Part shown: in pieces, positions 3,139 to 48,150 of the stretch
Layout of the letters: every line of letters begins with the position of its first letter
Numbering within the stretch: position 1 is the first letter of the stretch
From: Bacteroidia bacterium
GTDB lineage: Bacteria > Bacteroidota > Bacteroidia > NS11-12g > UBA9320
Direction of reading: 5' to 3'
Length of the DNA: 64,000 nt
Assembly: GCA_020053795.1 (NCBI GenBank)
Contig: JAGVMN010000012.1
Span: 11,347 to 75,346, forward strand
Notes under the pieces: generated by a model
The model's input: the letters and a program-made list of their open reading frames with translations, nothing else
What the model was told of the DNA's origin: nothing
Database searches by the model: none
Translations under genes and position numbers: made by a program

Positions 3139-3158
3139 GGCCATATCGTCGGCCACAA

Positions 3159-3431
3159 TAACTCACAAAGTCTGAGTCTTATCAAACACCAATACATCCT
3201 CCACAGGTTTTCTCAAAGATTTGGTCATTTCCTCTGACTCGTGCAACCGGAACAAAAAGATTTCTCCCGGGTACTTGTTAATCCCAAAGACTTCTTCATG
3301 CAGCACCCTTATTTCCGATAAGACTTTGATCATGTCGACACTCAGTCCTTCGTTGTTGCCTTTGACCAAACGGGCAAAAAGAAAGATGGCGGCAGACATA
3401 GGCTGTATGGCAAATTCAAGTTCGGCACATT
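3159..3431 (-). pseudogene. Orphan duplicated 3' fragment of the ThiF/nitroreductase gene (copy of 7268-7540)
   Basis: Aligns without gaps to 7268-7540 (offset 4109), with about 17 mismatches in 273 nt by my count. The 78-aa ORF at 3163-3399 differs from the last 78 aa of the 782-aa protein at 3 residues. No upstream part of the gene is present. Confidence 0.85.
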
Positions 3432-3664
3432 ATGCCTTTGGTTTGAGTTTTTCTCAAACCAATACAAAGACAACAACTCGTTATTTTTGTTCAAATAGCA
3501 GATGTTTTTGAAAAACAATAACATTTGGTAAATACTTCCTTTATAGAAAAATCAAATGTTTTAATAAGATGTACAATCATTAAAGCAGATTTGTAAAAGA
3601 GAAGAAATTCACAAATTATACAAATGTTGCATAAAGTTGAATCCAACAAAAGTAATTTCGAAAC

Positions 3665-5128
3665 CTAAAACCTATACCCCAAATACCAACCAATACCAAG
3701 TTGAGAGAAACGGCTGACGTACTTTGCAAAGTTCGACCCCAATTGTTTGCTACCAAAGAAGTTGGCTCCAAATTGCAAATGTGGCGACAATTGATAGCCG
3801 GCATTGAATTGGGTTAATGGATTGACTGTAAATCGCTTTAGTTTTTGCTCGCTATCCCCGATTGCAGTTAGTCCGTCAAGTTTCGAATTGATCAAAAATT
3901 CCTCTGCCTTGTAAAGCCACTGAAATTCCGCTCCTACTCTTACGGAAAACCGAAGCCTCTTATAGGGATATTCAAAACGGGCCTGTATTGGAATTTGAAA
4001 CCAACGAAAAGTATTCTTGTCTGCCTGCCCTTTAATAAAAGACTCCTCCGAGTGTATGGCTGTCGTGTCTTGGTATTCTTTTATCAAAGAAACCGAAGTT
4101 CCATTAGGCCGGATATCAAAATTGGGTTCTATCATTGAGTAACGAGTTTCTGTTTCATATCGCACATCCGGAGCCATGTAACCAGTTTTAAGCGAAGCCT
4201 GACTGTAACCTATTCCAGTTAGTAATCCAAAATCTCCTTTATGAATAATAACATTCACAACATAACTGCTTGCTTCATTCTCCTTTTCATATTGTCTTCG
4301 GAATTTTAATTCTGAGGCAGATAATCCTGAAATGTCGTTTTTTAATTTCATGGAGTACTTTCCATCCAATTCAATGCTAATATTAAATTTCCTTTTGTTA
4401 TTAGGTTTGAAGGTTTGAAACTGATTTGATGAAATTACATGATGATTCATAACTTTGAAAAAAGAATGAATACCTTTTGGGAAAAGTTTTATCAAGGTGA
4501 ATTCACCTTCAATATCTGCCCGCGTAGGTTCTTTTGCCCTAAATTTCGAATAATTTGGTTGATCTACCGATGGCGATACTTCTGTTTTTAACAGACCCTT
4601 GCTTACTTTTGGTACCTGAACAGACTTCTCTTTGTTTTGATTTAGATCTAAAAATGAATTTCTCCTTTTGTGTCTATCAGTTGATTCAGTTTTGTCCACG
4701 TTGCTTTGACCTGTCCGATACTTAATTCCATGTTTGTTTAAATTCATTTTTGAGTGGTCTTTCACTTCGTTATTATTCCTTTCAGAGTTAATACCCGTTG
4801 CAATGGTTCCTGCTTCTTTATTTAGGCGTGTTTCATCCTTAGCAAGGATTTGGGTCTTATAGGACAATACCGAAACCGGTTCGTTTGTTGAATCTGAACC
4901 CGAATGAAGGTATAAGGCAATGGCACCAGTGGCTACAAATCCTATGATGGCTGATATTATCAGCATGTTCTTTTGAAACGGAATGATTGCAATATCCTTT
5001 TCGACCGATGCCCACAAGGTGGGATCGTACTCAAAGTGTTCCTCGGTTTTTTCCATGAACAGCTTGTCTATGGGATGTTCATCTTGATTTTTCAAAGCGA
5101 ATCGAATTAGTTCTATTGTGCTCTTCAT
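3665..5128 (-). CDS. Putative anti-sigma factor: short cytoplasmic N-terminus, one TM helix, C-terminal outer-membrane beta-barrel-like domain
   Basis: Sits immediately downstream of, and overlapping, the ECF sigma gene. TM helix MLIISAIIGFVATGAIALYL. The C-terminus shows alternating beta-strand patterns and ends in ...GIGWYLGYRF, an aromatic terminal residue typical of OM barrels. An alternative start is the Met at 5056. Confidence 0.5.
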   Translation of the reverse strand: MKSTIELIRFALKNQDEHPIDKLFMEKTEEHFEYDPTLWASVEKDIAIIPFQKNMLIISAIIGFVATGAIALYLHSGSDSTNEPVSVLSYKTQILAKDETRLNKEAGTIATGINSERNNNEVKDHSKMNLNKHGIKYRTGQSNVDKTESTDRHKRRNSFLDLNQNKEKSVQVPKVSKGLLKTEVSPSVDQPNYSKFRAKEPTRADIEGEFTLIKLFPKGIHSFFKVMNHHVISSNQFQTFKPNNKRKFNISIELDGKYSMKLKNDISGLSASELKFRRQYEKENEASSYVVNVIIHKGDFGLLTGIGYSQASLKTGYMAPDVRYETETRYSMIEPNFDIRPNGTSVSLIKEYQDTTAIHSEESFIKGQADKNTFRWFQIPIQARFEYPYKRLRFSVRVGAEFQWLYKAEEFLINSKLDGLTAIGDSEQKLKRFTVNPLTQFNAGYQLSPHLQFGANFFGSKQLGSNFAKYVSRFSQLGIGWYLGYRF

Positions 5129-5654
5129 CTAACATTTGTTGTAACCTGACCCTTGCCTCATGCAGATACCATTTCGAGGTTCCTTCACTCATGTCCAGCA
5201 TCTCACCAATTTCGCGGTGGTTAAAACCATCAATGGCATATAAATTAAAGACCTTTTGACTCACCTGTGGCAGTGCTTGTAACATCTTGTGCAAGTCCTT
5301 TGCTGCTAAAGAAGTTTGAGAATCCAAAGCAGTTCTTACATTTTCGAATTTGTTCAGGTCGCCATTAAAAGAAATTATACTGTGGAGGCTTTTTGATTTT
5401 CTGAACTCATCGGTCAAATGGTTCAAGGCAATCGTTTTTACCCAAGGCAACAATGGTTTATCCAAATCGTATGTGATTAGGTTGCTGATTATTTTAAGGA
5501 AGATGGCATTCACGGCACCTCCCGCCTCATCATAATTGCGGTTGTATCGGATGCAAATATTCATGAGATAGCTAAACAACAGTTTGTACAATTGATTGCA
5601 GGCACGGCGATTCCCATTGGTACAATTTCTGATGAGTATAGCATCTATCTGCAT
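5079..5654 (-). CDS. RNA polymerase ECF-type sigma-70 family factor
   Basis: Region 2-like segment (CNQLYKLLFSYLMNICIRYNRNYDEAGGAVNAIFLKI...LLPWVKTIALNHLTDEFRK). Region 4 HTH segment (QKVFNLYAIDGFNHREIGEMLDMSEGTSKWYLHEARVRLQ). Confidence 0.85.
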   Translation of the reverse strand: MQIDAILIRNCTNGNRRACNQLYKLLFSYLMNICIRYNRNYDEAGGAVNAIFLKIISNLITYDLDKPLLPWVKTIALNHLTDEFRKSKSLHSIISFNGDLNKFENVRTALDSQTSLAAKDLHKMLQALPQVSQKVFNLYAIDGFNHREIGEMLDMSEGTSKWYLHEARVRLQQMLDEEHNRTNSIRFEKSR

Positions 5655-5722
5655 TTATTTATTGCCCTAATGCATAAAAACCCGATATTTTAAATACCGG
5701 GTTTTGCAAATCTTAGCAGAAA

Positions 5723-7093
5723 TTATCGTCTCACAAATTTGATATAATCAATACCAGTTTTGCCGGTTAACTTCAGGAAATACAATCCCGGTTGCAAGGT
5801 GCCGGTCCTAATAACTGATGTAAACATTGCCGTATTAATTATTTCATCGGAACGAAACACAATTTGTCCACTTGAATTAATGACTTCTATTTTAATGAAG
5901 TTTGGTTCTGAGTTCTCAAATGAAATAAACAATTCATCTGTCACTGGATTTGGATATATCTTCAATTTCAAACTGCTTATAACATCAATACCGACCTTAT
6001 CTTCATCTATGACAATTATTTCAAACCCTCCTGTTTTCATCAACTTGCCCGATGAATCCAACCCGAGTGAATCGCAATAAGTTGCAGTACAAGTACGACC
6101 TAAGTAACTGTCTGTAATGGTTAGGCAAACCAAATACCTACCAAAAGTTTTGTAACTGTGCGTTGGATTTCTCTGAGCAGAGGATGTACCATCTCCGAAA
6201 TCCCAGTAATAAGTTGTCAAGGGATTTTTGTTGGATTTATTGATCAGAAAAAGTTTGAATTTCTTGGACGTGTCAATGGCTACTGTAAAATAAGCTTTGC
6301 AAGTCGAATTGGATCCAACGTAAACTTGCCTACAGGTAGTAGAGGAATCTGTTGATGAACAATATACTGTAAGGCAAACATTATAATTCGTATTTACGTT
6401 GGTATAAACATGTACACCATTAGCAGATGTGCTTCCACTGCTGTCCCCAAAATCCCATTTCACGTTTAGTGGATAGTACGAAGATTGAAATACCATTGAA
6501 TCGCCTTTAACCGAATAGGTAAAAGTCGAGTAACAAGGTTTGGTTACTACAACAGCATGACAGGTGGAATCTGTACAATTGTTGACGGTATCTGTAATTT
6601 TCAGACAAGCAGTATAAGTACCTGTAGATGGGAAAGTGTATGTCACAATATTTGCCCCGGAACTGAGTTTATTGCCCGCAATGGTCCACTCGTGGATGAT
6701 GCCAAAAAAACCCGAATTGCTCTGAAAAGAATATTTGAGATAATTGGTATCAGGCCATTCCGTAAACCCTGCTCTGCATCCGGAACTCGTAAGCGAGATT
6801 ATCATGCAAACGGTATCGCCGCATCGGGTAACCGAATCAAAAATAGATAGACAAACCGTGTAAGGCCCTACTCCGTTATATTTATGAATTGGGTTTTGTT
6901 TGTTGCTGGAAGTTCCATCTCCGAAAATCCATGTCCAGTCCGTAACCCTGCTACCGGAAGTAGAACTATCATAGAAATCAACAGTCATAGTTGACGGATC
7001 AACATAATAAGAAAAGTTCGCCTTGCATTGAGCTTTTGCGAATTGGCTGCCGAAAACAGCCATCAGAAGAATGAGTACGTTTTTTGTTTTCAT
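5723..7093 (-). CDS. PKD-repeat surface protein with T9SS type-A C-terminal sorting domain
   Basis: Signal peptide MKTKNVLILLMAVFGSQFAKA. Repeated PKD signatures (WIFGDGTSSNKQNPIHKYNGVGPYTVCL; WDFGDSSGSTSANGVHVY; WDFGDGTSSAQRNPTHSYKTFGRYLVCL). C-terminal tail KIYPNPVTDELFISF...GLYFLKLTGKTGIDYIKFVRR. Confidence 0.85.
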   Translation of the reverse strand: MKTKNVLILLMAVFGSQFAKAQCKANFSYYVDPSTMTVDFYDSSTSGSRVTDWTWIFGDGTSSNKQNPIHKYNGVGPYTVCLSIFDSVTRCGDTVCMIISLTSSGCRAGFTEWPDTNYLKYSFQSNSGFFGIIHEWTIAGNKLSSGANIVTYTFPSTGTYTACLKITDTVNNCTDSTCHAVVVTKPCYSTFTYSVKGDSMVFQSSYYPLNVKWDFGDSSGSTSANGVHVYTNVNTNYNVCLTVYCSSTDSSTTCRQVYVGSNSTCKAYFTVAIDTSKKFKLFLINKSNKNPLTTYYWDFGDGTSSAQRNPTHSYKTFGRYLVCLTITDSYLGRTCTATYCDSLGLDSSGKLMKTGGFEIIVIDEDKVGIDVISSLKLKIYPNPVTDELFISFENSEPNFIKIEVINSSGQIVFRSDEIINTAMFTSVIRTGTLQPGLYFLKLTGKTGIDYIKFVRR

Positions 7094-7271
7094 AATATAA
7101 GTTATTTACCCTCGATACGAAGATAAAACGAAAAGAGTTGGTTGACCTTCTAAATTTTATCGTCAGCCGTTAAAAAAAATACTTACGCCATACTGGGTTT
7201 CATATAAAGAATAAGAATTGCTTCTCAGGTCAACTGAGATTTAGTCAAGTTGTCAAAAAAACAAATTTAAC

Positions 7272-9620
7272 TCACGAAGTCTGAGTCTTATCAAACACCA
7301 ATACATCCTCCACAGGTTTTCTCAAAGATTTGGTCATTTCCTCCGACTCGTGCAACCGGAACAAAAAGATTTCTCCCGGGTCTTTATTAATGCCAAAAAC
7401 TTCTTCATGGAGAACCCTTATTTCTGATAAGACCTTTATCATGTCGTCACTCAGTCCTTCGTTGTTGCCTTTGACCAAACGGGCAAAAAGAAAGATAGCG
7501 GCAGACATAGGCTGTATGGCAATGTCAAGTTCAGCACATTTGATCCAGATGCGTTGCATGGCTTTTCCGCCGTTCAAAAAATCGAGGCGACTGTAAGATG
7601 GCATGGTGAGCAATCCCACCGCCGATGAGTGGTCAATGCATTTTTTGCCCAGCTTTTCGAATGCCCCGCCGCCACCCCAGCGAATGAGATTTTTGACCAC
7701 GGACCATTTGCGGGCCAGATTGAAACCCGCTAATTCAGTGTTTGTAACGTCAACCGTTCGCATGTCAATACCCGTTCTCGAACGAATGGCATCTTCGGTT
7801 TTCCATTTTATTTCGTTGTAAAACTCGCGGTGGCTGGTTTCATTGGTCAATAAGGTTCTTTCGGATTTGCCGATGATTTTGGCAATGGTCTCCAGTTCCT
7901 CATCGGAACTTTTGATGATGAGTTTGGCTCCGGGAATTTCCGAAGCAACTTTTTTCAGGGCATCATATTTCCATTCAGGAATTTTAACCCTTTTGCTCAC
8001 TCTTCTGTTGGTGGCCCTTTGATCAAGGAACGGGTAATATTGCTGATGCCAGGTTTTTTTAGCCCCGCGGATATCATCCGATAATTTTCTGAAGAATATT
8101 TTGGCGATGAGTAATTGGTCTTCTTCCGGATACAGTTTAACTTCTGTTTCCAAACCAAGAGTATAGGCCTCCAATTCGAGATTTTCAATAGCGGCTCCCA
8201 ATCCGATATAGGCCCCCCGGTGGCGAAAATCGAGGTATTGGGTAGATGCATCCACTTCATGAACGAGGTATAGAATTCCCGATCGGTAAATCCATTTCCA
8301 GGGTTGGTTGTTTCCGCCGGACGGTGCTTTAATAGCTGTTGAAACAAGGGATGTAATTTCGGTTTCGGAAGGTATGTGAAATCCATCCGGCAATTTTTCA
8401 GATGAACCTATAATAGCATGGTAATTTCTGGTAGCGGCAAGTTCGACCGGGGACTGTTCGGCAGAAGTGTTTTCTTCTAATGAAGTATCTATTTTAGAGC
8501 TGCCATCTGCAACCAGATCAGCAATATCGACAATGTATCTGCCAGATTCCCTGTATTGATCGAGCAACATTCTTCGGCAAATGTCAGCAGTCATGCCACC
8601 ACCATAAGTTACCGCAGAAGCCAATTGTGGCCAGGTATTCACCGTCTGGGTTATTTCAAGCAAAGACGAACGCATCCGGTCAGATAAGTTTCCCAGACCA
8701 ACAATCTGCATCATAAAAGGCATTTTCTCTTCATTGGTTCTGGCGGCTTTGGCTTTTTGAGGATCCATATCATGCAACAGCCCGTGTAAAATTGGTCTCT
8801 CCGGTTCCAGATCAAACCGCTCCACATCTATAGTGCCCCGCTCGCTGGCCTCCATCAAAACTGGTACGCGATGAAATTTAGCCCTTTCGCGACAGGCAAT
8901 TTTGATGTCTAATCCATCACATTCGTCTATCAGAACATCCAGTTTCCCGCCATCAAGAATAAAGGAATCGAGGTTAGCTTCAGTAATGCCCTCATGAAAA
9001 CAAACGACTGTTAAGAATGGATCAATCTCGGCAATTTCCCGGGCCACAGCCACGACCTTTGTAATTCCCAGATTATGTAACCCGGTTCTTATCCTGTTCA
9101 GGTTGGTGAGTTCCAAAATGTCGTTATCTGCAATCCTCAGTTCCCCGACGATCCGTTCGAGGGCTAAAGTGGTAGAGACCGAACTGCCTACCGACAGGCC
9201 AATGACGCCCACTTTTTTTGTTGCCAGTAGTTTTTGCTCATCGGTGGTTATCTTGTTCTTGTTGCGGTTGGTTCTGGCTTCAATGAATTCCCTTTCATCA
9301 AGTATGTGAATGAGTTTATTTGACCAAGGATAGAAAACCCAAACGCCGTATTCTTCAATGGGGGTGTCCTTTAGATGAATCTTTACAGCATCATCAAGAA
9401 TCTGCTTTGGAAATGGCCTGTCAGGGTTCAGAGATTTAACCAATTCCTCTAACTGACCAATCATTTCATCATGAACACACAGGTGCTTATTATCTTGAAT
9501 TAATCGCAGTAACTTTTCTTTTTCCGACGGGTTCGACAGTTTGAAAAATTCCGGAACATGAACCTGTTTTATTTTGTCAGATTCGCTCCTTAACGCATTT
9601 AGACCATGTATTTTTTCCAT
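7272..9620 (-). CDS. ThiF/E1-like adenylyltransferase domain fused to a nitroreductase-fold domain (Rv1355c/MoeY-like architecture)
   Basis: The N-terminal half has a ThiF/MoeB-type dinucleotide loop and following strand (KKVGVIGLSVGSSVSTTLALERIVGELRIADNDILELTNLNRI). The C-terminal third has the nitroreductase-type signature APSGGNNQPWKW. Confidence 0.7.
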   Translation of the reverse strand: MEKIHGLNALRSESDKIKQVHVPEFFKLSNPSEKEKLLRLIQDNKHLCVHDEMIGQLEELVKSLNPDRPFPKQILDDAVKIHLKDTPIEEYGVWVFYPWSNKLIHILDEREFIEARTNRNKNKITTDEQKLLATKKVGVIGLSVGSSVSTTLALERIVGELRIADNDILELTNLNRIRTGLHNLGITKVVAVAREIAEIDPFLTVVCFHEGITEANLDSFILDGGKLDVLIDECDGLDIKIACRERAKFHRVPVLMEASERGTIDVERFDLEPERPILHGLLHDMDPQKAKAARTNEEKMPFMMQIVGLGNLSDRMRSSLLEITQTVNTWPQLASAVTYGGGMTADICRRMLLDQYRESGRYIVDIADLVADGSSKIDTSLEENTSAEQSPVELAATRNYHAIIGSSEKLPDGFHIPSETEITSLVSTAIKAPSGGNNQPWKWIYRSGILYLVHEVDASTQYLDFRHRGAYIGLGAAIENLELEAYTLGLETEVKLYPEEDQLLIAKIFFRKLSDDIRGAKKTWHQQYYPFLDQRATNRRVSKRVKIPEWKYDALKKVASEIPGAKLIIKSSDEELETIAKIIGKSERTLLTNETSHREFYNEIKWKTEDAIRSRTGIDMRTVDVTNTELAGFNLARKWSVVKNLIRWGGGGAFEKLGKKCIDHSSAVGLLTMPSYSRLDFLNGGKAMQRIWIKCAELDIAIQPMSAAIFLFARLVKGNNEGLSDDMIKVLSEIRVLHEEVFGINKDPGEIFLFRLHESEEMTKSLRKPVEDVLVFDKTQTS

Positions 9621-19579: not shown

Positions 19580-20476
19580 ATGGACACTGGAGCAATTTGG
19601 ATCATAGCGACTGCATCATTGGTTGCCGCAAATGCAGCCATTTTAGGTTCATTCCTTATTATGCGAAAAATGACCATGTTGGCCGATGCCATTTCTCACG
19701 CGGTTTTGCCGGGTATCGTTATTGCCTATTTCATTTCGGGCTCACGAGCATCACTACCTGTGTCAGCAGGGGCGGCCGTTTCCGGCATTTTGGCGACTTT
19801 TCTGATTCAAACCCTGACCAAAAAAATGAAGATGCAGGAAGATGCCTCAATAGGGTTATCATTCACTTTTTTGTTTGCCATCGGGGTGGTGCTCATCTCT
19901 TATTTCGGAAAGGACATTGATCTGGATCAGGATTGCGTTTTGTATGGCGAAATTGCCTATGTGGCTTTAGATGTTTGGAAGATAAACGATGTGAGTATTG
20001 GCCCCAGACAATTTTGGATATTGGTCATCAACCTGATCATTGTGGTTGGTTTTGTTTATCTGTTCTATCAGCGATTGGTGTTAACGACCTTCGATCCGGC
20101 ATATGCGGCCTCATTGGGTATCAGCATAGTCTTTTGGCTTTATGCTTTGATGGGCGGTGTTTCTCTGACAACCGTTTTGTCCTTCGAGGCAGTTGGTGCT
20201 ATATTAGTCGTTGGTTTTTTTGCGGGATTGCCTGCCACTGCTTATTTGCTTTCGAATAATTTCAAACAAATGATTTTCATTGCTGTTGGTCTTGGCGTTG
20301 TTGCATCAATTCTCGGGTATTTTTTGGCTGCATGGGTCAATGGATCTGTTGCAGGGGCCATGAGTGTGATTGTTGGAATTGAGTTCTTCGTTGCTTTGGC
20401 CGTAAGCAAATTGGGCAAATTCAGGATACAGCCAAATCACGAAAAAGTCATAAAACCGACATTGGGTAAAACTTGA
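19580..20476 (+). CDS. Metal ABC transporter permease (ABC-3 family), second subunit
   Basis: 298-aa polytopic protein with LADAISHAVLPGIV (paralogous to LIGDVIAHSVLPGIA in the previous gene). Starts 2 nt after the upstream stop. Confidence 0.85.
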   Translation: MDTGAIWIIATASLVAANAAILGSFLIMRKMTMLADAISHAVLPGIVIAYFISGSRASLPVSAGAAVSGILATFLIQTLTKKMKMQEDASIGLSFTFLFAIGVVLISYFGKDIDLDQDCVLYGEIAYVALDVWKINDVSIGPRQFWILVINLIIVVGFVYLFYQRLVLTTFDPAYAASLGISIVFWLYALMGGVSLTTVLSFEAVGAILVVGFFAGLPATAYLLSNNFKQMIFIAVGLGVVASILGYFLAAWVNGSVAGAMSVIVGIEFFVALAVSKLGKFRIQPNHEKVIKPTLGKT

Positions 20477-20775
20477 ATACTTGTTTCTGTAAGCTTTGCC
20501 TATTTTTGAGTTTATCTTTATGCGAAGCAAAATAATTGCAAGTTGTTCGTCACCCTAAAAGACGACACTACCGACAATAAACGAACAGAAAAAAGACAGA
20601 CTAAATGCCAACGCTTCGCAAAATAATAAGAGCTGCAACCACCAGTATAAGCCGACCGAATTTGCAGCACATTTTTATTTTGCCCAACCGCACCCGAGTC
20701 CAAGCACCACCCTGACAAATGGAAAGTTATTTGGGGGCAAAGGGGCACTAAAATATTAACTTTGAGACTTTAAAT

Positions 20776-23700
20776 ATGGGACGTTCGACTGTACATTACG
20801 CAGACAATAAAACAAACAATGCTTTAAAAAAGCTACACAACAAGTTAAGACCTGCTGGTACACCTGTTCAACGAGTGGAGTATATCATTGAATTGCTTTT
20901 ATTGAGAATTTTTGAAACCAAAATAAAACAAGACGAAGAGTTTAAACCGTTACGCAGACTTTTTTCGGCTGACTATGTTTGGAAAAACCCCAAAACGGGT
21001 GTTGAGGAAACAAACGAAAATCGTTTATTCTCTTATTTGCCCACAGTTTCCAACGAGCAGATTTTATCTGAACTCAACGATAACTTTTTTCCATTCTATT
21101 CAAGCATTTTGCACAGTGCAAGACAAGTGTTTGAAGGAAACCTTCCCCAAAAAGTTCAAGACCAATTGGTGTTGATTGAAGAAGTTTTCAGCAACTCAAA
21201 TTTCACGAACAATGTAAATAGCGGAAATCTTGGCGAAGTAATCAGCATTGTTGCCAACGACATTGAAGAAGCAAGGCTATTGAAAACCGACCTTTTAGGT
21301 GATGCCATTGAATCGGCTTTGAGTGAAACAGGCGGAACAAAAGATGTTGGACTATTCCGAACGCCTGACCATATTCGACAATTTATGACGGCTATGATAG
21401 AGCCGACTTTTGACGATATAATTTTTGACCCTGCTTGTGGTACAGGTGGTTTTTTGTTTGATGCTTTTGAATTTGTAATGCGAAGAGTTGACCCCGACCG
21501 TGAATGGCCGGGCGAAAAAGCTCATTCTGAATTATCGGCTTGGTTTGACGAGTATTTTAAGTTCAATCAATTGGACTTTCCGAGCATTGAGCAAACCACA
21601 CAGTTTTACCGAAGTGGCGTAACAGGCATTGAATATTTGGGAATGATTCGCAAAATGGCGGCTATCAACTTTTATGTTCGGGGCTTAAACCCTGCCAACA
21701 TTGAGCAAGGCGATAGTTTAGCAAAATATAGACCCGTAACCGACCACGAAAGCAAATCGGTTATTTTGGCCAATCCACCTTTTGGGGCACAACGTGACCA
21801 GGAAAGTTATCCTGATGTTTGGGGCGAATATTCCAAAGAATCGGAAACCACTATTTTGTTTGTGAAACTGATGTTTGAGCAACTCAAAGCAGGTGGCAGA
21901 TGTGCCGTTGTAGTTTCAGAAGGTTTTCATACCTGGGACCAGTTTAGTGCAAAGGCTTTGCGTAAAATGCTATTGGACGAAGCCCAACTAAAAGCCGTTA
22001 TTTCTTTGCCGCAAGGTTTGTTTGTGAGCAAAAGCGGACAAGGCCCCAAAACGAGTATTCTCATTTTTGAAAAAGGTACTTCGACAGGCTCAGTAACCAC
22101 TTCGACAGGCTCAGTATCTACCGACTGGACTTGGTTTTACAAAATAACCAACGATGGTTACACCATGGGAACCAACCGTAAGGAGCAAAAAGGAAATCAA
22201 CTGATTGAATGCCTTACGCTGTGGCACGAATATGTAAAACATGGTAAGCAACCGCCCGAAACCAAAAACCAATTTTGCATTCCTGCCGAATGGATTAAAA
22301 CACTTGACCCACGGATAAAAGAAAAAATCCGCACAGAAACCCGTGCCGATATGGAAGTGAAAGGCAAAATTGAACGGGAGAAAAAAGAGGCCGACCTTGA
22401 TAAAAAGATAAAAGCAAAAAAAGCTACCGAAGCCGACAAGTCAATGGAACTGAAAACCTTTGACCAAATGCTGGAAAACCGCATACAAAACGAAATTGCC
22501 AAACGTATTGACAAGGCACACAACTATTCTTTCAACTTAGCCAATTATAAAAGCAGTATCAGCGACAGCCAAATTGTAGAATGGACGGAAGCACTTAAAC
22601 ACATTCAGCCAAATGGAGCAACTACGGTAGAAGATGTTTACAAAAAACTGAATAACGGCAAGCCCGAAAACATTTTACCCTATCTGCTAAAACTAAACCC
22701 AACCAATGCACTGGAAGCCGACATTGCCCGGGAATATGTAAGCAATTTGGACAACGACCTTATTGCAAAACATAAGGAGTTGAATGTGATTAAGGAGATT
22801 TTGAAAAGCGGTGCAAAATATCCAATGGTTAAATTGAAAGACTATTTGATATTGAATGAAAACAAAATAAAGCCCAATAAAAACCCTGATGTAAATTACA
22901 AAGTGCTTGGTGTAAGCAATGAAGAAGGCATTTTCTTAAACGAAAAACTACAAGCCGAAGAAACCAACCAAAGCTATTTTGTAGTGGCGAAAAATGAATT
23001 TTGCTACAACCCATACAGAATAAATGTGGGAAGCATTGGCTTAAATACCAACGACTACGACAACCAAATTATTAGCGGTGCGTACATTGTGTTTGCTTGC
23101 AAAGAAGATGAACTCAACCCAAAATATTTAGACACACTTTTTAAGAGCAAAGGTTTTTTGAATTATGTGAACGACAAAGCCAATGGCGGAGTGCGTATGA
23201 ACTTTAAGTTTGAAGATATGGCAGCCTGGGAAATTCCCTTGCCTTCTCTTGACGAACAAAACGCCATTGTTGCCCAAATTGAAAAACAAAAAGCGATTAT
23301 TGAAGGGGCGGAAAAAATCGTTTCTAATTGGAGTGTTGATATTGATTCCTATTTGTCGCATTATTATTTTTCACAAAAGCCAATTTCAGATTTAATAGTT
23401 GATTCGCTCTATGGTTCTTCTGAAAAAGCAGATTATCAAGAAGACGGCTACAATGTTTTAAGAATAGGAAATATCGGTTTTTGTGATTTCAAACTAAGTG
23501 ATATTAAGAAATCAGTATTATCAGAAAAAGACTTTAAAAAATACGAATTAAAGAAAGGAGATTTTTTAATAGTTCGGTCAAATGGCAATCCAAATCTTGT
23601 AGGCAAATGTGCTGTTTGGGATTCTGATTTGCAATTTGTCTATGCTTCCTATTTGATTAGGTTTAGATTCAAATTAGACGAAATAAACCCCAAATATGTA

Positions 23701-23991
23701 ATGTATTTCTTAATGAGCGAAAAAGGTAGAAGTTTATTGAACCCGACTGCTGGCGGTGGAACATACAATATAAGTGCAACAGATTTTCAAAAAGTTCAAA
23801 TTCCTTATCCAAATCCAGAAATTCAAAACAAAATTGTTGCTGAATTAGATGCACAAATGGAAGTTTTGAACGGCTTACGAAAAATAAAAACCGAAGCCCA
23901 AAAGAAAATCAATCAAATCTTAGCAGATGTTTGGGGTGTAGAATTTTCAGAACCTATAAAAATGGAGATAGCGGATGAGCAAGAAAATTAA
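20776..23991 (+). CDS. hsdM: Type I restriction-modification fused methyltransferase-specificity subunit (HsdM-HsdS fusion)
   Basis: HsdM-N-like start (LHNKLRPAGTPVQRVEYIIELLLLRIFE). SAM motif I FDPACGTGGFLFDA and motif IV ILANPPFG. A Lys/Glu-rich coiled-coil linker follows. Then come two target-recognition domains, each followed by the HsdS conserved helix (IPLPSLDEQNAIVAQIEKQKAII; IPYPNPEIQNKIVAELDAQMEVL). Confidence 0.8.
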   Translation: MGRSTVHYADNKTNNALKKLHNKLRPAGTPVQRVEYIIELLLLRIFETKIKQDEEFKPLRRLFSADYVWKNPKTGVEETNENRLFSYLPTVSNEQILSELNDNFFPFYSSILHSARQVFEGNLPQKVQDQLVLIEEVFSNSNFTNNVNSGNLGEVISIVANDIEEARLLKTDLLGDAIESALSETGGTKDVGLFRTPDHIRQFMTAMIEPTFDDIIFDPACGTGGFLFDAFEFVMRRVDPDREWPGEKAHSELSAWFDEYFKFNQLDFPSIEQTTQFYRSGVTGIEYLGMIRKMAAINFYVRGLNPANIEQGDSLAKYRPVTDHESKSVILANPPFGAQRDQESYPDVWGEYSKESETTILFVKLMFEQLKAGGRCAVVVSEGFHTWDQFSAKALRKMLLDEAQLKAVISLPQGLFVSKSGQGPKTSILIFEKGTSTGSVTTSTGSVSTDWTWFYKITNDGYTMGTNRKEQKGNQLIECLTLWHEYVKHGKQPPETKNQFCIPAEWIKTLDPRIKEKIRTETRADMEVKGKIEREKKEADLDKKIKAKKATEADKSMELKTFDQMLENRIQNEIAKRIDKAHNYSFNLANYKSSISDSQIVEWTEALKHIQPNGATTVEDVYKKLNNGKPENILPYLLKLNPTNALEADIAREYVSNLDNDLIAKHKELNVIKEILKSGAKYPMVKLKDYLILNENKIKPNKNPDVNYKVLGVSNEEGIFLNEKLQAEETNQSYFVVAKNEFCYNPYRINVGSIGLNTNDYDNQIISGAYIVFACKEDELNPKYLDTLFKSKGFLNYVNDKANGGVRMNFKFEDMAAWEIPLPSLDEQNAIVAQIEKQKAIIEGAEKIVSNWSVDIDSYLSHYYFSQKPISDLIVDSLYGSSEKADYQEDGYNVLRIGNIGFCDFKLSDIKKSVLSEKDFKKYELKKGDFLIVRSNGNPNLVGKCAVWDSDLQFVYASYLIRFRFKLDEINPKYVMYFLMSEKGRSLLNPTAGGGTYNISATDFQKVQIPYPNPEIQNKIVAELDAQMEVLNGLRKIKTEAQKKINQILADVWGVEFSEPIKMEIADEQEN

Positions 23992-30458: not shown

Positions 30459-31535
30459 ATGACTAACACCAATAAACTTCTTCTTCTGATCACATTTTTT
30501 TTTCTTGCCTGCAAACTACCAAAATTGATAAGGCAGCCCCTGTCATCAAATGAAAAACATTTGAAAAATATCACCCAACTGACTTTCGGTGGCGACAATG
30601 CCGAGGCCTATTTTAGTTTTGACAATAAGAATCTGATTTTCCAGTCTAATTATAAGGCATGGGGGGTTGAATGTGATCAGATATTCAACATGAATATTCA
30701 CGCCGCCCTGAGAGATACCCTCAGACCACCTATGCTCAGTACAGGCAAAGGCCGAACAACTTGCTCTTATTTTATGCCGGGCAATCAAAGTATTCTTTAC
30801 GCTTCCACTCATCTTGGTGGCGATGCATGTCCGCCGAATCCCGATATGGGTAAATTGAAAAAATATCTCTGGCCTGTTTACAATACTTTCGACATTTTCG
30901 TGAGTGATTTGAACGGAACCATCACCAAACAACTGACCAAGGAACCCGGGTATGATGCTGAAGCAACGGTTTCACCAAAAGGTGATAAAATTGTTTTTAC
31001 TTCAGATCGCTCCGGCGATCTGGAACTTTATGTAATGGACATTGATGGCAGCAATGTGAAACAGGTAACAAACCGCCTGGGGTATGATGGCGGGGCATTT
31101 TTTTCACCGGACGGTTCCATGCTCGTTTTTCGGGCATCCAGACCTACGTCAGAGGCCGAAATAAGGGAGTACGGCGATTTACTGGCTCGGGGATTGGTGG
31201 CACCTACCAACATGGAAATCTATGTTTGTAATGTGGACGGAAGCAATCTGCGTCAGATAACCAAATTGGGCAAAGCCAATTGGGCACCGTTTTTTCACCC
31301 TTCGGGAAAAAAGATCATCTTTTCTTCCAATCACCAGTCAGATGCCCGTGGGTTTGACTTTCATTTATACATGATCAATCTCGATGGAACAGGGCTTGAA
31401 AAAATTACCAATGAGAGCCATTTCAATGCTTTTCCCATGTTTTCACACAATGGTAAAAAACTGGTGTTTTCTTCCAACCGAAACAACGGCGGAACGCGTG
31501 ATACTAATTTGTTTATAGCCGACTGGGCGGATTGA
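30459..31535 (+). CDS. PD40/TolB-like beta-propeller repeat protein
   Basis: Repeated PD40 units (SPKGDKIVFTSDRSGDLELYVMDIDGSNVKQVT; FSPDGSMLVFRASR; FHPSGKKIIFSSNHQS...LYMINLDGTGLEKIT; FSHNGKKLVFSSNRN). Confidence 0.75.
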   Translation: MTNTNKLLLLITFFFLACKLPKLIRQPLSSNEKHLKNITQLTFGGDNAEAYFSFDNKNLIFQSNYKAWGVECDQIFNMNIHAALRDTLRPPMLSTGKGRTTCSYFMPGNQSILYASTHLGGDACPPNPDMGKLKKYLWPVYNTFDIFVSDLNGTITKQLTKEPGYDAEATVSPKGDKIVFTSDRSGDLELYVMDIDGSNVKQVTNRLGYDGGAFFSPDGSMLVFRASRPTSEAEIREYGDLLARGLVAPTNMEIYVCNVDGSNLRQITKLGKANWAPFFHPSGKKIIFSSNHQSDARGFDFHLYMINLDGTGLEKITNESHFNAFPMFSHNGKKLVFSSNRNNGGTRDTNLFIADWAD

Positions 31536-32167
31536 AATTCGATTTGAAGATGAGAAACACAAATCCGGCTATAGATGCCTACATTCTTAAGTCAGCAGAC
31601 TTCGCACAGCCCATTATGATTCATCTTCGCGAACTTGTGCATGCCACATGCCCCGATGTAGAAGAGAAGATGAAATGGAGTTTTCCGCATTTCGATTATA
31701 AGGGAGAAATGATGTGTAGCATGGCTGCCTTCAAACAGCACTGCGTCTTTGGCTTTTGGAAAGCCAGCATCATACCCGATCCTCAAAAGATTCTAACCCC
31801 TGTGGGCGAAACTGCTATGGGCAACTTCGGGAAAATTACCCGGCTGGAAGATTTGCCGGCTGATGATATTTTGATAGCATACATCAAAGAAGCAAAGCGG
31901 TTGAATGATGAGGGAGTAAAAGTGAAACCGAATACCAAAGCTAAAGCGGAACTCCCAGTACCGGATTACATGATGGACGCTATTCGAAAAGATGCAAAGG
32001 CACTGGAAACCTTTGTGAATTTCAGCGTCAGTTGCAAGCGTGAATATGTGGAGTGGGTGACTGAAGCCAAAAGTGAAGAAACCCGTTTAAAAAGACTGGA
32101 TCAGGCCATAGAATGGATGGCAGAAGGCAAAATACGGAACTGGAAATATGTGAAGAAGTATTTTTAG
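31532..32167 (+). CDS. DUF1801 (YdhG-like) plus YdeI/OmpD-associated domain protein
   Basis: N-terminal KWSFPHFDYKGEMMCSMAAFKQHCVFGFW (DUF1801 pattern). C-terminal FVNFSVSCKREYVEWVTEAKSEETRLKRLDQAIEWMAEGK (YdeI pattern). Confidence 0.7.
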   Translation: MKFDLKMRNTNPAIDAYILKSADFAQPIMIHLRELVHATCPDVEEKMKWSFPHFDYKGEMMCSMAAFKQHCVFGFWKASIIPDPQKILTPVGETAMGNFGKITRLEDLPADDILIAYIKEAKRLNDEGVKVKPNTKAKAELPVPDYMMDAIRKDAKALETFVNFSVSCKREYVEWVTEAKSEETRLKRLDQAIEWMAEGKIRNWKYVKKYF

Positions 32168-35508: not shown

Positions 35509-35568
35509 CGAAACTGTTTCAGGCCATTAAACAGATGTCATAAGGGAAAATCCGGAACTGGAAATATG
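35509..35568 (+). pseudogene. Orphan copy of the 3' end of the DUF1801/YdeI gene (copy of 32101-32160)
   Basis: The 60-nt ungapped alignment has 51 identities by my count. It includes an identical run GGAACTGGAAATATGTGA. The copy's translation is interrupted by a stop (FQAIKQMS*GKIRNWKYVRK*). Confidence 0.75.
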
Positions 35569-35602
35569 TGAGGAAGTAGCACTTTAACTGAATATTTTAA
35601 AA

Positions 35603-45071: not shown

Positions 45072-45221
45072 AGTTCAAATTTATGAGTTTTCATCAAATT
45101 GCCATACACTCTATTTTATCTTTTCGATTGCATTACATCCCCCACACCCCCATCGTATCATTAGTATTTTCTCAGAATGCTCAAATTGTCAGTTTAATTA
45201 AGACGGTTTTCATACTTTTGA

Positions 45222-45809
45222 ATGATGTTTGTGAAGTATCTTTGGCTCACCTTACTAGCAATTACCGTCTGTAATTTAGGCTACGGTCAAACCGAAATAA
45301 ATAAGACTTTATCAAAGAGATTGGACTCCCTGAGGGTTGAGGATCAGAAATGGAGAAAAATGTTTGCCCAAGACAGTTCTCAAAAGGCGTATGCCAAAAG
45401 AATGTTTAACTTGACAGATAGTTTGAACCTGATTGAGGCCAAAAGTATATTCAAAGAATTCGGACTCCCAACTATAAGCATGGTGGGTGAAATCAGCTGC
45501 CATAATTTCTATCTATTGGTTCTTCATGCTGATGAGGAGCCTGAGTTTCAAAGGCAGGTATTGAAGCAAATGAAAAGTAGTATTAAGTCTAATGACTGTG
45601 CAAGGAAAGACTATGCCTATTTGACTGACAGATACAGGCTCAATAATGGAAGAAAACAAATTTACGGAACCCAAATTGAACTGAACGAAAGCAAAACGGC
45701 ATATCAACCCAAGCGTTTGAAGAATCCAAAGAGAGTCAATAAGAGAAGACAAGCCATGGAAGTAACGCCTTTCGAACTGGAAAAATACTATAGTACCCCC
45801 CAAAATTAG
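45222..45809 (+). CDS. Hypothetical secreted protein whose last 5 codons and stop lie inside the IS left end
   Basis: Signal peptide MMFVKYLWLTLLAITVCNLGYGQ. No family was confidently recognised. The ORF runs into the IS inverted repeat (…EKYY|STPQN*). Confidence 0.5.
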   Translation: MMFVKYLWLTLLAITVCNLGYGQTEINKTLSKRLDSLRVEDQKWRKMFAQDSSQKAYAKRMFNLTDSLNLIEAKSIFKEFGLPTISMVGEISCHNFYLLVLHADEEPEFQRQVLKQMKSSIKSNDCARKDYAYLTDRYRLNNGRKQIYGTQIELNESKTAYQPKRLKNPKRVNKRRQAMEVTPFELEKYYSTPQN

Positions 45810-45845
45810 GACAACTGATTAAGTTGTAAATTTAACAGTTGAAAA

Positions 45846-46124
45846 ATGAAAAGAACACGCAGAAAATTCAGTTCGAGTTTCAAGGCAAAAGTTGCCATTG
45901 AAGCTCTAAAAGAGCAAATGACGTTGCAAGAATTGTCATCCAAGTTTGAGGTCCACCCAAATCAGATATCGGCCTGGAAGCAAGAATTTCTAAGCAATGC
46001 ATCAACAGTTTTTGAGTCTAAATCGGTTAAGGGCGATTCAGAGTTGGACAAGGAAAAATTGTACAAGGTCATTGGTGAGCAAAAGGTGGAAATTGATTTT
46101 TTAAAACATGTCTTGGGAAAATGA
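45846..46124 (+). CDS. IS3-family transposase OrfA (HTH)
   Basis: [49 protein letters not shown] plus a leucine-zipper-like tail. Candidate -1 slippery heptamers in frame are T TTT TTA (46097-46103) and G GGA AAA (46115-46121). Confidence 0.85.
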
Positions 46125-46969
46125 GCACGACCGAAAAGAGACAACAGGTAGTGGCATCTCATCCAAGTCTAAGTCTCAAGAAACAATGTGAAGCTTTGGG
46201 GGTACATCGTTCTGGGATGTACTACAAACCACGTGGTCAGAGTGCTTTGAATGAACGGTTGATGAAAGATATAGACCGTTGTTTTCTGGTTCATCCTTAC
46301 TATGGAGTGGCACGAATGACCGATTACCTGAATAGGGACCTGGGTTATAGGGTCAATGAAAAGCGGATAGCCCGATTGTATAGGATCATGAATCTAAATA
46401 CCATTTATGCCCATCCTAAAACTACCCGGAGAGACCCCGATAAATATGTTTATCCCTATCTGCTTAGAAATCTTACTATAGACCACCCAAATCAGGTATG
46501 GCAAACAGACATTACCTATATCCCCATGTTCAGAGGCTTCATGTATCTGGCTGCTATCATAGACGTATATAGTAGAAAGGTACTGGGATGGAGTCTTTCA
46601 AATTCCATGACCACAAAATGGTGTGTAGTACTGCTTAACGACACAATAAACGAACATGGCAAACCCGAAATACATAACTCAGATCAGGGTTCTCAGTACA
46701 CCAGTTCTGACTATATTGAAGTTCTTAAAAAGCATGAAATAAGAATTTCAATGGATGGTAAAGGCAGAGCACTTGACAATGTATATATCGAAAGGTTCTG
46801 GCGTTCTCTCAAACAAGAGAAAATTTATCTCAATCCTCCAAATGGAGGTGTAGATTTGCATCAGAAGGTGAAAGAGTATATTCACTTTTACAATACAGAA
46901 AGACGACACACAGAGATTGGCAAAGTACCACCAGATGAAAAATTTGATGCCAAAAAAATGACAGGATAA
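46121..46969 (+). CDS. IS3-family transposase OrfB (DDE/rve integrase core)
   Basis: DDE triad contexts are [20 protein letters not shown] and [10 protein letters not shown]. OrfB is in the -1 frame relative to orfA. That frame is open upstream to at least 46097, so an OrfAB fusion is possible. Confidence 0.9.
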
Positions 46970-47139
46970 TCAATTAAGAAATCAAAAATGTTGTCCTAAC
47001 AATGGGGGGTACCTTATACATCGAATGGGTAAATCGGGATTTATTGGGAACCGGGTCACAAAAGCACCCCTAAAATCATTTAATCAGGAATGAGATTTGA
47101 TTCCCCTGTTTTACGGTCGTATCATTGTATTTTCTCAGT

Positions 47140-48150
47140 ATGACAGAAGAATCTACACCCTTTACCCTCTTTACTTTTACTGCCGACAAGGGGCAGGAAC
47201 CTTTTCGCATTGATAAATTCCTCACGGACCGGATACAGAATGTCACCCGCAACCGCGTGCAGCAGGCCATAGAAGATCAAAAGGTTTTGGTGAACGAACT
47301 TCCAGTGAAATCGAACTACAAAGTAAGACCTGGAGACAAAGTAACGGTTATCAGCTTTGAGGAACCCCGATCTCTGGAAGTGCTGCCCGAAGACATTCCT
47401 TTGGACATTGTCTTTGAGGACGAACATCTTATCATCCTTAACAAACAGGCCGACTTTGTGGTGCATCCCGGTCATGGCAACTATACCGGAACCCTTGTGA
47501 ACGCCCTCGCTCATTATATGGGGGTGGAACCCGAAGGCAGCATCCGTCCATGGCTGGTGCACCGCATAGACAAAGACACCACAGGCCTTATGGTTGTGGC
47601 GAAAAATGAACCCGCCATGGCCAAACTGGCGGTTCAGTTCAAGAACCACAGCATAGAAAGAACTTACAACGCCCTTGTCTGGGGACTTTTCAAAGAGAAG
47701 GAGGGCACCATAGAAGGCAACATCGCCCGAAGCAACCGCGACCGCAAACTTTTTATGGTTTACGACGACGAGGAAATCGGCAAGACAGCCGTGACCCATT
47801 ACAAGGTACTGGAAGAATTCAACTATGTATCGCTGATTGAATGCAAACTCGAAACCGGCAGAACACACCAGATAAGGGTACACATGAAACATGCCGGACA
47901 TACCCTTTTTAATGATGCCTACTACGGCGGTAACAAGATATTGAAGGGAGTGGTTTTCAGCAAGTACAAACAGTTTGTAGAGAATTGTTTTCAGATCATG
48001 CCGCGTCAGGCTTTGCACGCCAAGTCATTGGGATTTGTTCACCCGCACTCAGGCCAATGGGTGCAGTTCGACAGCGAGTTGCCGGAAGATTTTCTTCAGG
48101 TGTTGGAAAAGTGGCGGGCCATCAGCAAGGTATATAATTTTGAAGGGTGA
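47140..48150 (+). CDS. rluD: 23S rRNA pseudouridine synthase, RluA family (RluD-like, with S4 domain)
   Basis: S4-like N-terminus (FRIDKFLTDRIQNVTRNRVQQAIEDQKVLVN). Catalytic motif HRIDKDTTGLMVVAKN. C-terminal GRTHQIRVH. The first ATG is at 47140. Confidence 0.85.
   Translation: MTEESTPFTLFTFTADKGQEPFRIDKFLTDRIQNVTRNRVQQAIEDQKVLVNELPVKSNYKVRPGDKVTVISFEEPRSLEVLPEDIPLDIVFEDEHLIILNKQADFVVHPGHGNYTGTLVNALAHYMGVEPEGSIRPWLVHRIDKDTTGLMVVAKNEPAMAKLAVQFKNHSIERTYNALVWGLFKEKEGTIEGNIARSNRDRKLFMVYDDEEIGKTAVTHYKVLEEFNYVSLIECKLETGRTHQIRVHMKHAGHTLFNDAYYGGNKILKGVVFSKYKQFVENCFQIMPRQALHAKSLGFVHPHSGQWVQFDSELPEDFLQVLEKWRAISKVYNFEG

Follow-up and report, generated by a model that had tools for sequence, protein, structure and literature searches.

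How might a block of genes that carries no recombinase come to lie directly behind a resident gene, with that gene intact and a second copy of its end on the far side of the block? This question is raised by a locus within a 64,000-nucleotide (nt) stretch of Bacteroidia DNA, referred to here as the window, which is part of contig C22 in a metagenome bin of 76 contigs and 2.3 Mb that is 74% complete. The resident gene encodes a protein of 782 amino acids (aa) that belongs to the Rv1355c family. Its 3' end is present twice, at 3159-3431 and at 7268-7540, and the two copies bracket an insert of 3836 nt. Our alignment of the copies is gap-free at an offset of 4109 and contains 17 mismatches in 273 positions (93.8% identity), reproducing the 273-bp direct repeat as an earlier reading of this DNA (the original prediction) had described it. 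A search of the entire assembly returned these two copies only, the second with an E-value of 3.7e-117. We consider it reasonably likely that the repeat was left behind by a recombinase-independent insertion, brought about by a long target duplication or by homology-facilitated illegitimate recombination (HFIR), the two being taken together in this judgment.

The proximal copy forms the functional end of the 782-aa gene, whose product matches the NCBIfam family NF005901 with 762 bits (cut-off 476) as well as the Pfam families ThiF and Nitroreductase. The distal copy is a promoterless orphan. It holds a 78-aa open reading frame (ORF; 3163-3399, minus strand) that differs by 3 substitutions from the last 78 residues of the 782-aa protein; 2 further substitutions lie upstream of the methionine of this ORF, and no frameshift is found across the 89 codons. 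Thus, ORF comparison bears out the proposed roles of the two copies, the one as functional gene end and the other as its orphaned counterpart. The in-frame TAA of the orphan sits exactly at the junction 3431/3432. This 5' boundary is a novel joint, in which a 26%-GC spacer abuts codon 694 of the old gene. The 3' boundary is identical in both copies: homology extends 4 nt past the stop codon, that is, 4 nt into the spacer at 7094-7271, and the sequences beyond are unrelated. Behind the orphan, a terminator-like hairpin precedes a convergent gene for a 237-aa membrane protein. The hairpin is probably the old gene's own terminator, and together the two look like the original surroundings of the old gene. 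We also observed a sigma-70-like promoter match (TTGAGA-17-CATAAT; 3429-3457, minus strand) that straddles the junction just upstream of the 78-aa ORF. This match is probably fortuitous; promoters of Bacteroidota deviate from the sigma-70 consensus.

The divergence between the two copies is of a coding type. Of the 17 differences, 12 lie at third codon positions and are synonymous, whereas 5 alter an amino acid, which corresponds to a dS of 0.25, a dN of 0.024 and an omega of 0.10. Free drift of the orphan after a duplication in place predicts about one third of the differences to be silent, compared to the 12/17 that were observed (p ~0.002). Moreover, 11 of the 17 mismatches fall into a single 66-nt segment (p = 0.007), within which 9 of the 11 are silent and silent sites are near saturation; perfect runs of 67 and 49 nt flank this cluster. 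Judging from the sequence, the repeat pair is a mosaic. The silent excess together with the clustering argues against a local duplication whose copies then merely drifted apart. The mosaic pattern indicates that at least part of one copy stems from a well-diverged allele of a working gene. The excess at silent sites fits DNA from a diverged relative, and it fits equally well a true duplication after which a short stretch of the live gene was replaced by homologous import. A diversity-generating retroelement was rejected as the source of the differences, as only 3 of the 17 mismatches have an A in the orphan and the sole RVT_1 match of the genome is located on contig C61.

The bracketed segment contains exactly three ORFs, as originally predicted, and domain matches support the functions given to two of them. 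One encodes a 456-aa protein with PKD domains and a sorting domain of the type IX secretion system (T9SS), as judged from matches to Pfam PKD_4 (in four stretches), Por_Secre_tail and TIGR04183. The second encodes an extracytoplasmic function (ECF) sigma factor of 191 aa, whose paralogues in the genome are only ~30% identical. The third product, a 487-aa ORFan, matched no Pfam or NCBIfam family and finds itself alone among 5.8 billion proteins. A single membrane helix is predicted near residue 60, and the C-terminal half, as read from the sequence, ends with ...GWYLGYRF. The role of anti-sigma partner that had been proposed for the ORFan is a putative one, given by its position only. Scans with Pfam and NCBIfam detected no recombinase or transposase family in the three ORFs, in agreement with the earlier statement that the segment harbors neither an integrase nor a transposase. 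Searching the whole assembly with PF00589 identified three tyrosine-recombinase genes above the Pfam cut-off, none of them on the contig of the window, and searches for tRNAs and Rfam families gave no match in or beside the bracketed segment. The GC content of the block amounts to 37.5% compared to 40% for the genome, which places it at the 10th percentile. With an ORFan that has no homologue in this protein collection, no close paralogues and a low GC content, the inserted block looks accessory.

The layout recurs elsewhere in the genome. We combined a self-comparison of the genome with two systematic scans, which compared the last 240 nt of ORFs with mid-gene segments as controls. Of the 1075 ORFs that are 250 aa or longer, 8 have a same-strand, downstream and non-coding copy of their last 240 nt, and the mid-gene controls yielded 0. 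The original prediction had claimed that the architecture recurs; self-comparison and scans together give at least eight such loci and show that it is specific to 3' ends. Table 1 includes eight clear cases, a list that takes in shorter genes too. No integrase was found in any of their inserts. The scars at the MFS, MATE and murA genes hold one inserted gene each, show silent and replacement differences of 6/0, 6/1 and 7/0, respectively, and have their homology end 5 nt past the stop codon; at murA, the stop of the inserted gene also lies 5 nt ahead of the orphan copy. Pooling the four best-preserved pairs yields 31 silent versus 6 replacement differences. In older scar pairs, silent and replacement differences are near parity and stops are present, as would be expected of progressive decay. 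At murA, the 3' end marks a synteny break across the family: the upstream neighbor is kept in 29/29 family genomes in which murA was recovered, and synteny downstream is never retained.

Table 1 Coordinates of the locus, of the other repeats in the window and of the gene-end scars in the genome (positions refer to the window unless a contig is given).
Feature	Position	Strand	Description
Membrane-protein gene, 237 aa	2425-3138	+	Convergent; flank of the orphan copy
Terminator-like hairpin	3139-3154	minus	GGCCGACGATATGGCC followed by a T-run; 9 nt past the orphan's stop, before the convergent membrane-protein gene
Distal orphan copy (copy A)	3159-3431	minus	Lacks the first 693 codons; in-frame TAA before the fragment
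AT-rich spacer, 233 nt	3432-3664		26% GC; ends at the novel junction 3431/3432
ORFan membrane protein, 487 aa (or 463 aa)	3665-5128	minus	Start overlaps the sigma gene
ECF-type sigma-70 factor, 191 aa	5079-5654	minus	Pfam Sigma70_r2, r4_2, ECF; TIGR02937
Secreted protein, 456 aa	5723-7093	minus	Four PKD domains; C-terminal T9SS sorting domain (type A)
AT-rich spacer, 178 nt	7094-7271		31% GC; from the stop of the 782-aa gene to the first inserted gene
Proximal repeat copy (copy B)	7268-7540	minus	Last 89 sense codons of the 782-aa gene with its TGA stop and 4 nt beyond
Rv1355c-family gene, 782 aa	7272-9620	minus	Intact; ThiF/E1-like domain and nitroreductase-like domain
Second scar, proximal copy	32095-32160	+	Last 22 codons of a 211-aa DUF1801/YdeI-OmdA gene (31532-32167)
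Second scar, orphan copy	35513-35578	+	55/66 identical; internal stop
Third repeat, orphan copy	45153-45180	+	~27 nt of the rluD-like gene's leader to the ATG
Third repeat, functional copy	47117-47143	+	Leader and ATG of a pseudouridine synthase (rluD-like) gene
Rv1355c-family scar	window 3159 / 7268		Repeat 273 nt, 94%; cargo PKD/T9SS protein, ECF sigma factor, ORFan
YdeI-like scar	window 32095 / 35513		Repeat 66 nt, 83%; cargo CHU_C T9SS protein and two unknown ORFs
MFS scar	contig C3, 67371-68093		Repeat 53 nt, 89%; cargo 191-aa outer-membrane-barrel-like protein
MATE scar	contig C36, 22792-24100		Repeat 94 nt, 91.5%; cargo 349-aa unknown protein
murA scar	contig C41, 33065-34110		Repeat 113 nt, 92%; cargo CPBP-like protease
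Beta-lactamase-fold RNase scar	contig C33, 35987-38189		Repeat 90 nt, 88%; cargo RAYT-type (IS200-like Y1) transposase on the opposite strand
204-aa membrane protein scar	contig C33		Repeat 74 nt, 84%; cargo 1470-aa T9SS protein and another
Antiporter scar	contig C44		Repeat 49 nt, 78%

The boundaries of these scars show a regularity of their own. In the four best-preserved cases, homology ends 4, 5, 5 and 5 nt after the stop codon. A genome-wide post-stop consensus was ruled out as the basis of these matches, since the post-stop positions have no consensus in this genome and match with a probability of just 0.28 per site. Random gene pairs match at 4 of the first 5 post-stop positions 2.5% of the time, which gives ~4e-7 for four such cases. 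The boundaries of the four scars share no common motif, hairpin, terminal inverted repeat or integron-like core. An integron cassette was likewise rejected, as G|TTRRRY core sites within an attC hairpin are not shared by them. We discarded a selective reason for the position of the boundary, because a duplication taking in more intergenic DNA would be equally harmless. Silent differences might also have avoided the last 20-40 nt before the stop, as after a later allele import, and the pooled test for this was not significant (p = 0.24-0.84). It is a tentative and rather unlikely suggestion that cassettes enter 4-5 nt past a resident stop codon by one process that is repeatedly active in this lineage, and not by random accident. 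Such a process would copy a gene-end stretch of variable length and would need no cassette-borne recombinase.

Two other repeats in the window had been put forward as instances of the same architecture. The repeat placed at 32101/35509 exists (see Table 1), and only its second coordinate has to be moved by 10, as judged from 51/60 identities at 35519 compared to 20/60 at 35509. Its orphan copy lies 3.4 kb off, past a gene for a CHU_C/T9SS PKD protein and two unknown ORFs. The pair at 45153/47117 does not belong here, as its copies consist of a 5' leader with the ATG (~27 nt) and contain no gene end. The orphan copy of this third repeat is followed by a DUF6624 gene and then by a complete IS3-family element (45793-47012), which is inserted at the 3' end of the DUF6624 gene. 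This element comprises orfA (45846-46124) and orfB (46121-46969) between 23-nt inverted repeats (45793-45815 and 46990-47012) of 87% complementarity. Elsewhere in the assembly, contig C1 has a repeat of 363 bp, and others lie on C25, C51, C6 and C61; these turned out to be paralogue families, Rhs fragments or tandem arrays and were not counted as scars. On C61 (312-2266 and 4566-5192), a 760-aa open frame that gives the genome's sole reverse-transcriptase match is found beside a long array with a period of ~70 nt, possibly a reverse-transcriptase-associated CRISPR or another repeat array.

As a control, the same scan was applied to the first 2.0 Mb of a complete genome from the same family. 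Here, we obtained one clear scar, at an Lrp-type gene (169 nt, 93%, boundary at +2), and one repeat that continues past the stop codon. With one or two scars in 2.0 Mb of the control, the genome of the window appears unusually rich in them. The control genome (G007) also contains, at bases 19800-23850 (loci L076-L175), dense repeats with a period of ~160 nt and 90-96% identity that overlap several short ORFs.

We then turned to relatives of the locus. We searched 41 genomes, the window's own and 40 from its family or order, and 31 of them carry a match to the 782-aa gene; the best is 57% identical, and no common neighbor was present on either side in the neighborhoods examined. Across 19 loci on JGI metagenome contigs, the best match reaches 61% identity, again with no common neighbor. 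The closest homologues in the collection of 5.8 billion proteins are 64-67% identical, and the two closest reside in different surroundings. Exact-sequence look-ups covered four proteins, and those of the 782-aa gene, the flanking gene and the sigma factor returned nothing. Over all these searches the best homologues have identities of 56-67%, with no synteny in common.

How could an insertion have produced this arrangement? In the explanation that we favor, the 3.8-kb block with its PKD/T9SS cargo, sigma factor and membrane ORFan would have entered immediately after the stop codon of the Rv1355c-family gene. This would have left the gene's last 273 bases on either side of the block, with one copy completing the working gene and the other staying as a dead remnant by the gene's old terminator and old neighbor. 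Two routes might lead there. In HFIR, incoming DNA of a diverged relative would pair with the gene and bring along its own gene end and the cargo, and the far end of the incoming DNA would be joined illegitimately inside the resident gene at 3431/3432. In an insertion with long target duplication, the target stretch would be copied as the block enters, and a diverged allele would later have replaced some of the live copy through a short homologous exchange. The present evidence cannot separate these two routes. HFIR and C-terminal displacement were reportedly described by de Vries and Wackernagel and by Prudhomme et al., both in 2002, and by Jackson et al. in 2009, and insertion with long target duplication reportedly by Nobusato et al. 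in 2000.

Several observations weigh against such an insertion. In composition the block deviates only mildly, with a tetranucleotide distance to the genome at the 74th percentile. The scar-rich genome is a 74%-complete metagenome bin, compared to one or two scars in the complete relative. Neither route accounts for homology that ends 4-5 nt past the stop codon in four well-preserved scars, and so regular an end hints at a more specific event than illegitimate joining at random. Furthermore, no empty site and no donor context were found in the genomes, metagenome loci and protein collection searched; the direction of the event, insertion and not loss, is for this reason something that we infer rather than see. 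The foreign origin of the block and the route of recombination are likewise conclusions drawn from the sequence.

The original prediction had read the repeat as an attL/attR-like footprint. Its picture of an intact gene, an insert and a displaced orphan end holds, and the attL/attR part is not supported, given that no recombinase is present and that cargo and targets elsewhere are unrelated. A site-specific integrative element that entered by crossover within the 3' end of the gene and supplied a replacement gene end, with its recombinase since lost or acting from elsewhere, would leave just this layout, with a restored gene end and a displaced old one. It would also fit that the replacement end is recoded mainly at silent sites, as for e14/phage 21 at icd, and that homology ends just after the stop, as if only the coding part of an att site had been selected. 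However, neither the 3.8 kb nor the contig contains a recombinase, and no excisionase, replication or transfer gene is present. A repeat of 273 nt at 94% identity is moreover far longer and less exact than typical core sites. The other scars, at least seven, bracket unrelated, one-gene cargo at unrelated target genes with unrelated repeats of 49-113 nt, so that a single site-specific enzyme is insufficient and each would need its own. We thus regard such an element as improbable. An old inherited arrangement would account for the mosaic of identical runs beside near-saturated silent divergence: two full gene copies, derived from a xenologue or an ancient duplication, would have flanked the block, one would have lost its 5' part, and gene conversion would keep parts alike. 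But we saw no orphan end and no second copy of the gene in the 31 genomes with a match, and conversion, which needs homology on both sides of a tract, cannot alone give near-identity up to 4 nt past the stop. An orphan with only 5 amino-acid changes and no frameshift in 89 codons also speaks against this scenario, which we judge unlikely.

No foreign DNA is required if the gene end and the genes downstream were duplicated in tandem and the second gene set was then lost. A direct repeat with a period of 4109 nt is what a tandem duplication leaves, and the composition of the block is not strongly foreign. This scenario nevertheless needs two events, one of them a deletion with its end precisely at the repeat; neutral drift of the orphan is rejected by the excess of synonymous changes, and the endpoint 4 nt past the stop would be due to chance here and likewise at three other loci. 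We therefore hold it to be very unlikely. An assembly artefact, in which two alleles of the gene end from mixed strains were set in series, has to be considered for a 76-contig, 74%-complete bin with many more scars than the complete genome of the same family. At 3431/3432, however, a unique spacer is joined to the middle of a gene, and the first mismatch comes after just 7 shared bases, a joint that a shared k-mer path could not produce. Scars of 78-84% identity cannot be confused by an assembler, and there are no Ns at the junctions. An artefact thus appears extremely improbable.

The consequence for the locus is a modest one: a module of ECF sigma factor and T9SS cargo was presumably gained behind the Rv1355c-family gene, which came to no harm. 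The broader interest lies in the fact that most horizontally acquired bacterial genes have no mobility gene with them and that their entry into the chromosome is poorly documented. Such scars would record an entry event within a single genome, namely the site of joining, the keeping whole of the resident gene and the past of the gene ends as working alleles. With at least eight scars, four of them at a like distance from the stop codon, this genome offers a compact set on which to decide whether insertion with long target duplication arises as a by-product of one-sided homologous recombination or follows rules of its own.

Among known systems, phage 21 and e14 integrate at icd with an insert that brings slightly recoded last codons, so that the gene keeps working and its old end is left as a pseudo-fragment. 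Our locus resembles them in that repeats of the target's 3' end flank the insert and the gene is intact, but those elements have an integrase beside the attachment site and excise precisely, whereas no recombinase adjoins the repeat here. In fungal mitochondria, mORFs are mobile endonuclease ORFs that bring a replacement C-terminus for their host gene; like our block, they lie at the extreme end of that gene, with a version of its last codons on each side. They are driven by a homing nuclease within the insert, and the block described here encodes no nuclease. Closer to our case, insertions with long target duplication comprise blocks without mobility genes enclosed by direct repeats of 46-423 bp, which are unique and in many cases overlap a gene end; such insertions come mostly from naturally transformable species and their mechanism is unknown (Furuta et al. 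2010, PMC2853133). Likewise, our insert is a few-kb block (<20 kb) between direct repeats (>30 bp) that have no further copy in the genome and cover a gene's 3' end, with no mobility gene in or beside it. In contrast, the published cases were defined against an empty site and carry mostly restriction-modification cargo, whereas here the cargo is a sigma factor and a T9SS protein, the repeats differ mainly at silent sites and no empty site turned up in the genomes searched. HFIR-type displacement has been invoked for orphaned 3' regions at loci of the type VI secretion system (T6SS) and at Rhs loci (Kirchberger et al. 2017, PMC5361080; PMC3240628). It would share with our locus a homology anchor on one side, an illegitimate join on the other and a resident 3' part that is pushed downstream as an orphan; we find a downstream orphan in the same orientation that lacks its 5' part and a silent-site excess as between working alleles. 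In Rhs, contact-dependent inhibition and T6SS systems, however, the displaced ends encode different toxins with immunity genes, whereas here both ends encode the same sequence and nothing is diversified. Taken together, the locus belongs to a known class whose mechanism is open and is in itself ordinary; what deserves attention is how densely the scars occur in one genome, that they are confined to 3' ends and that their boundary is fixed at +4/+5.

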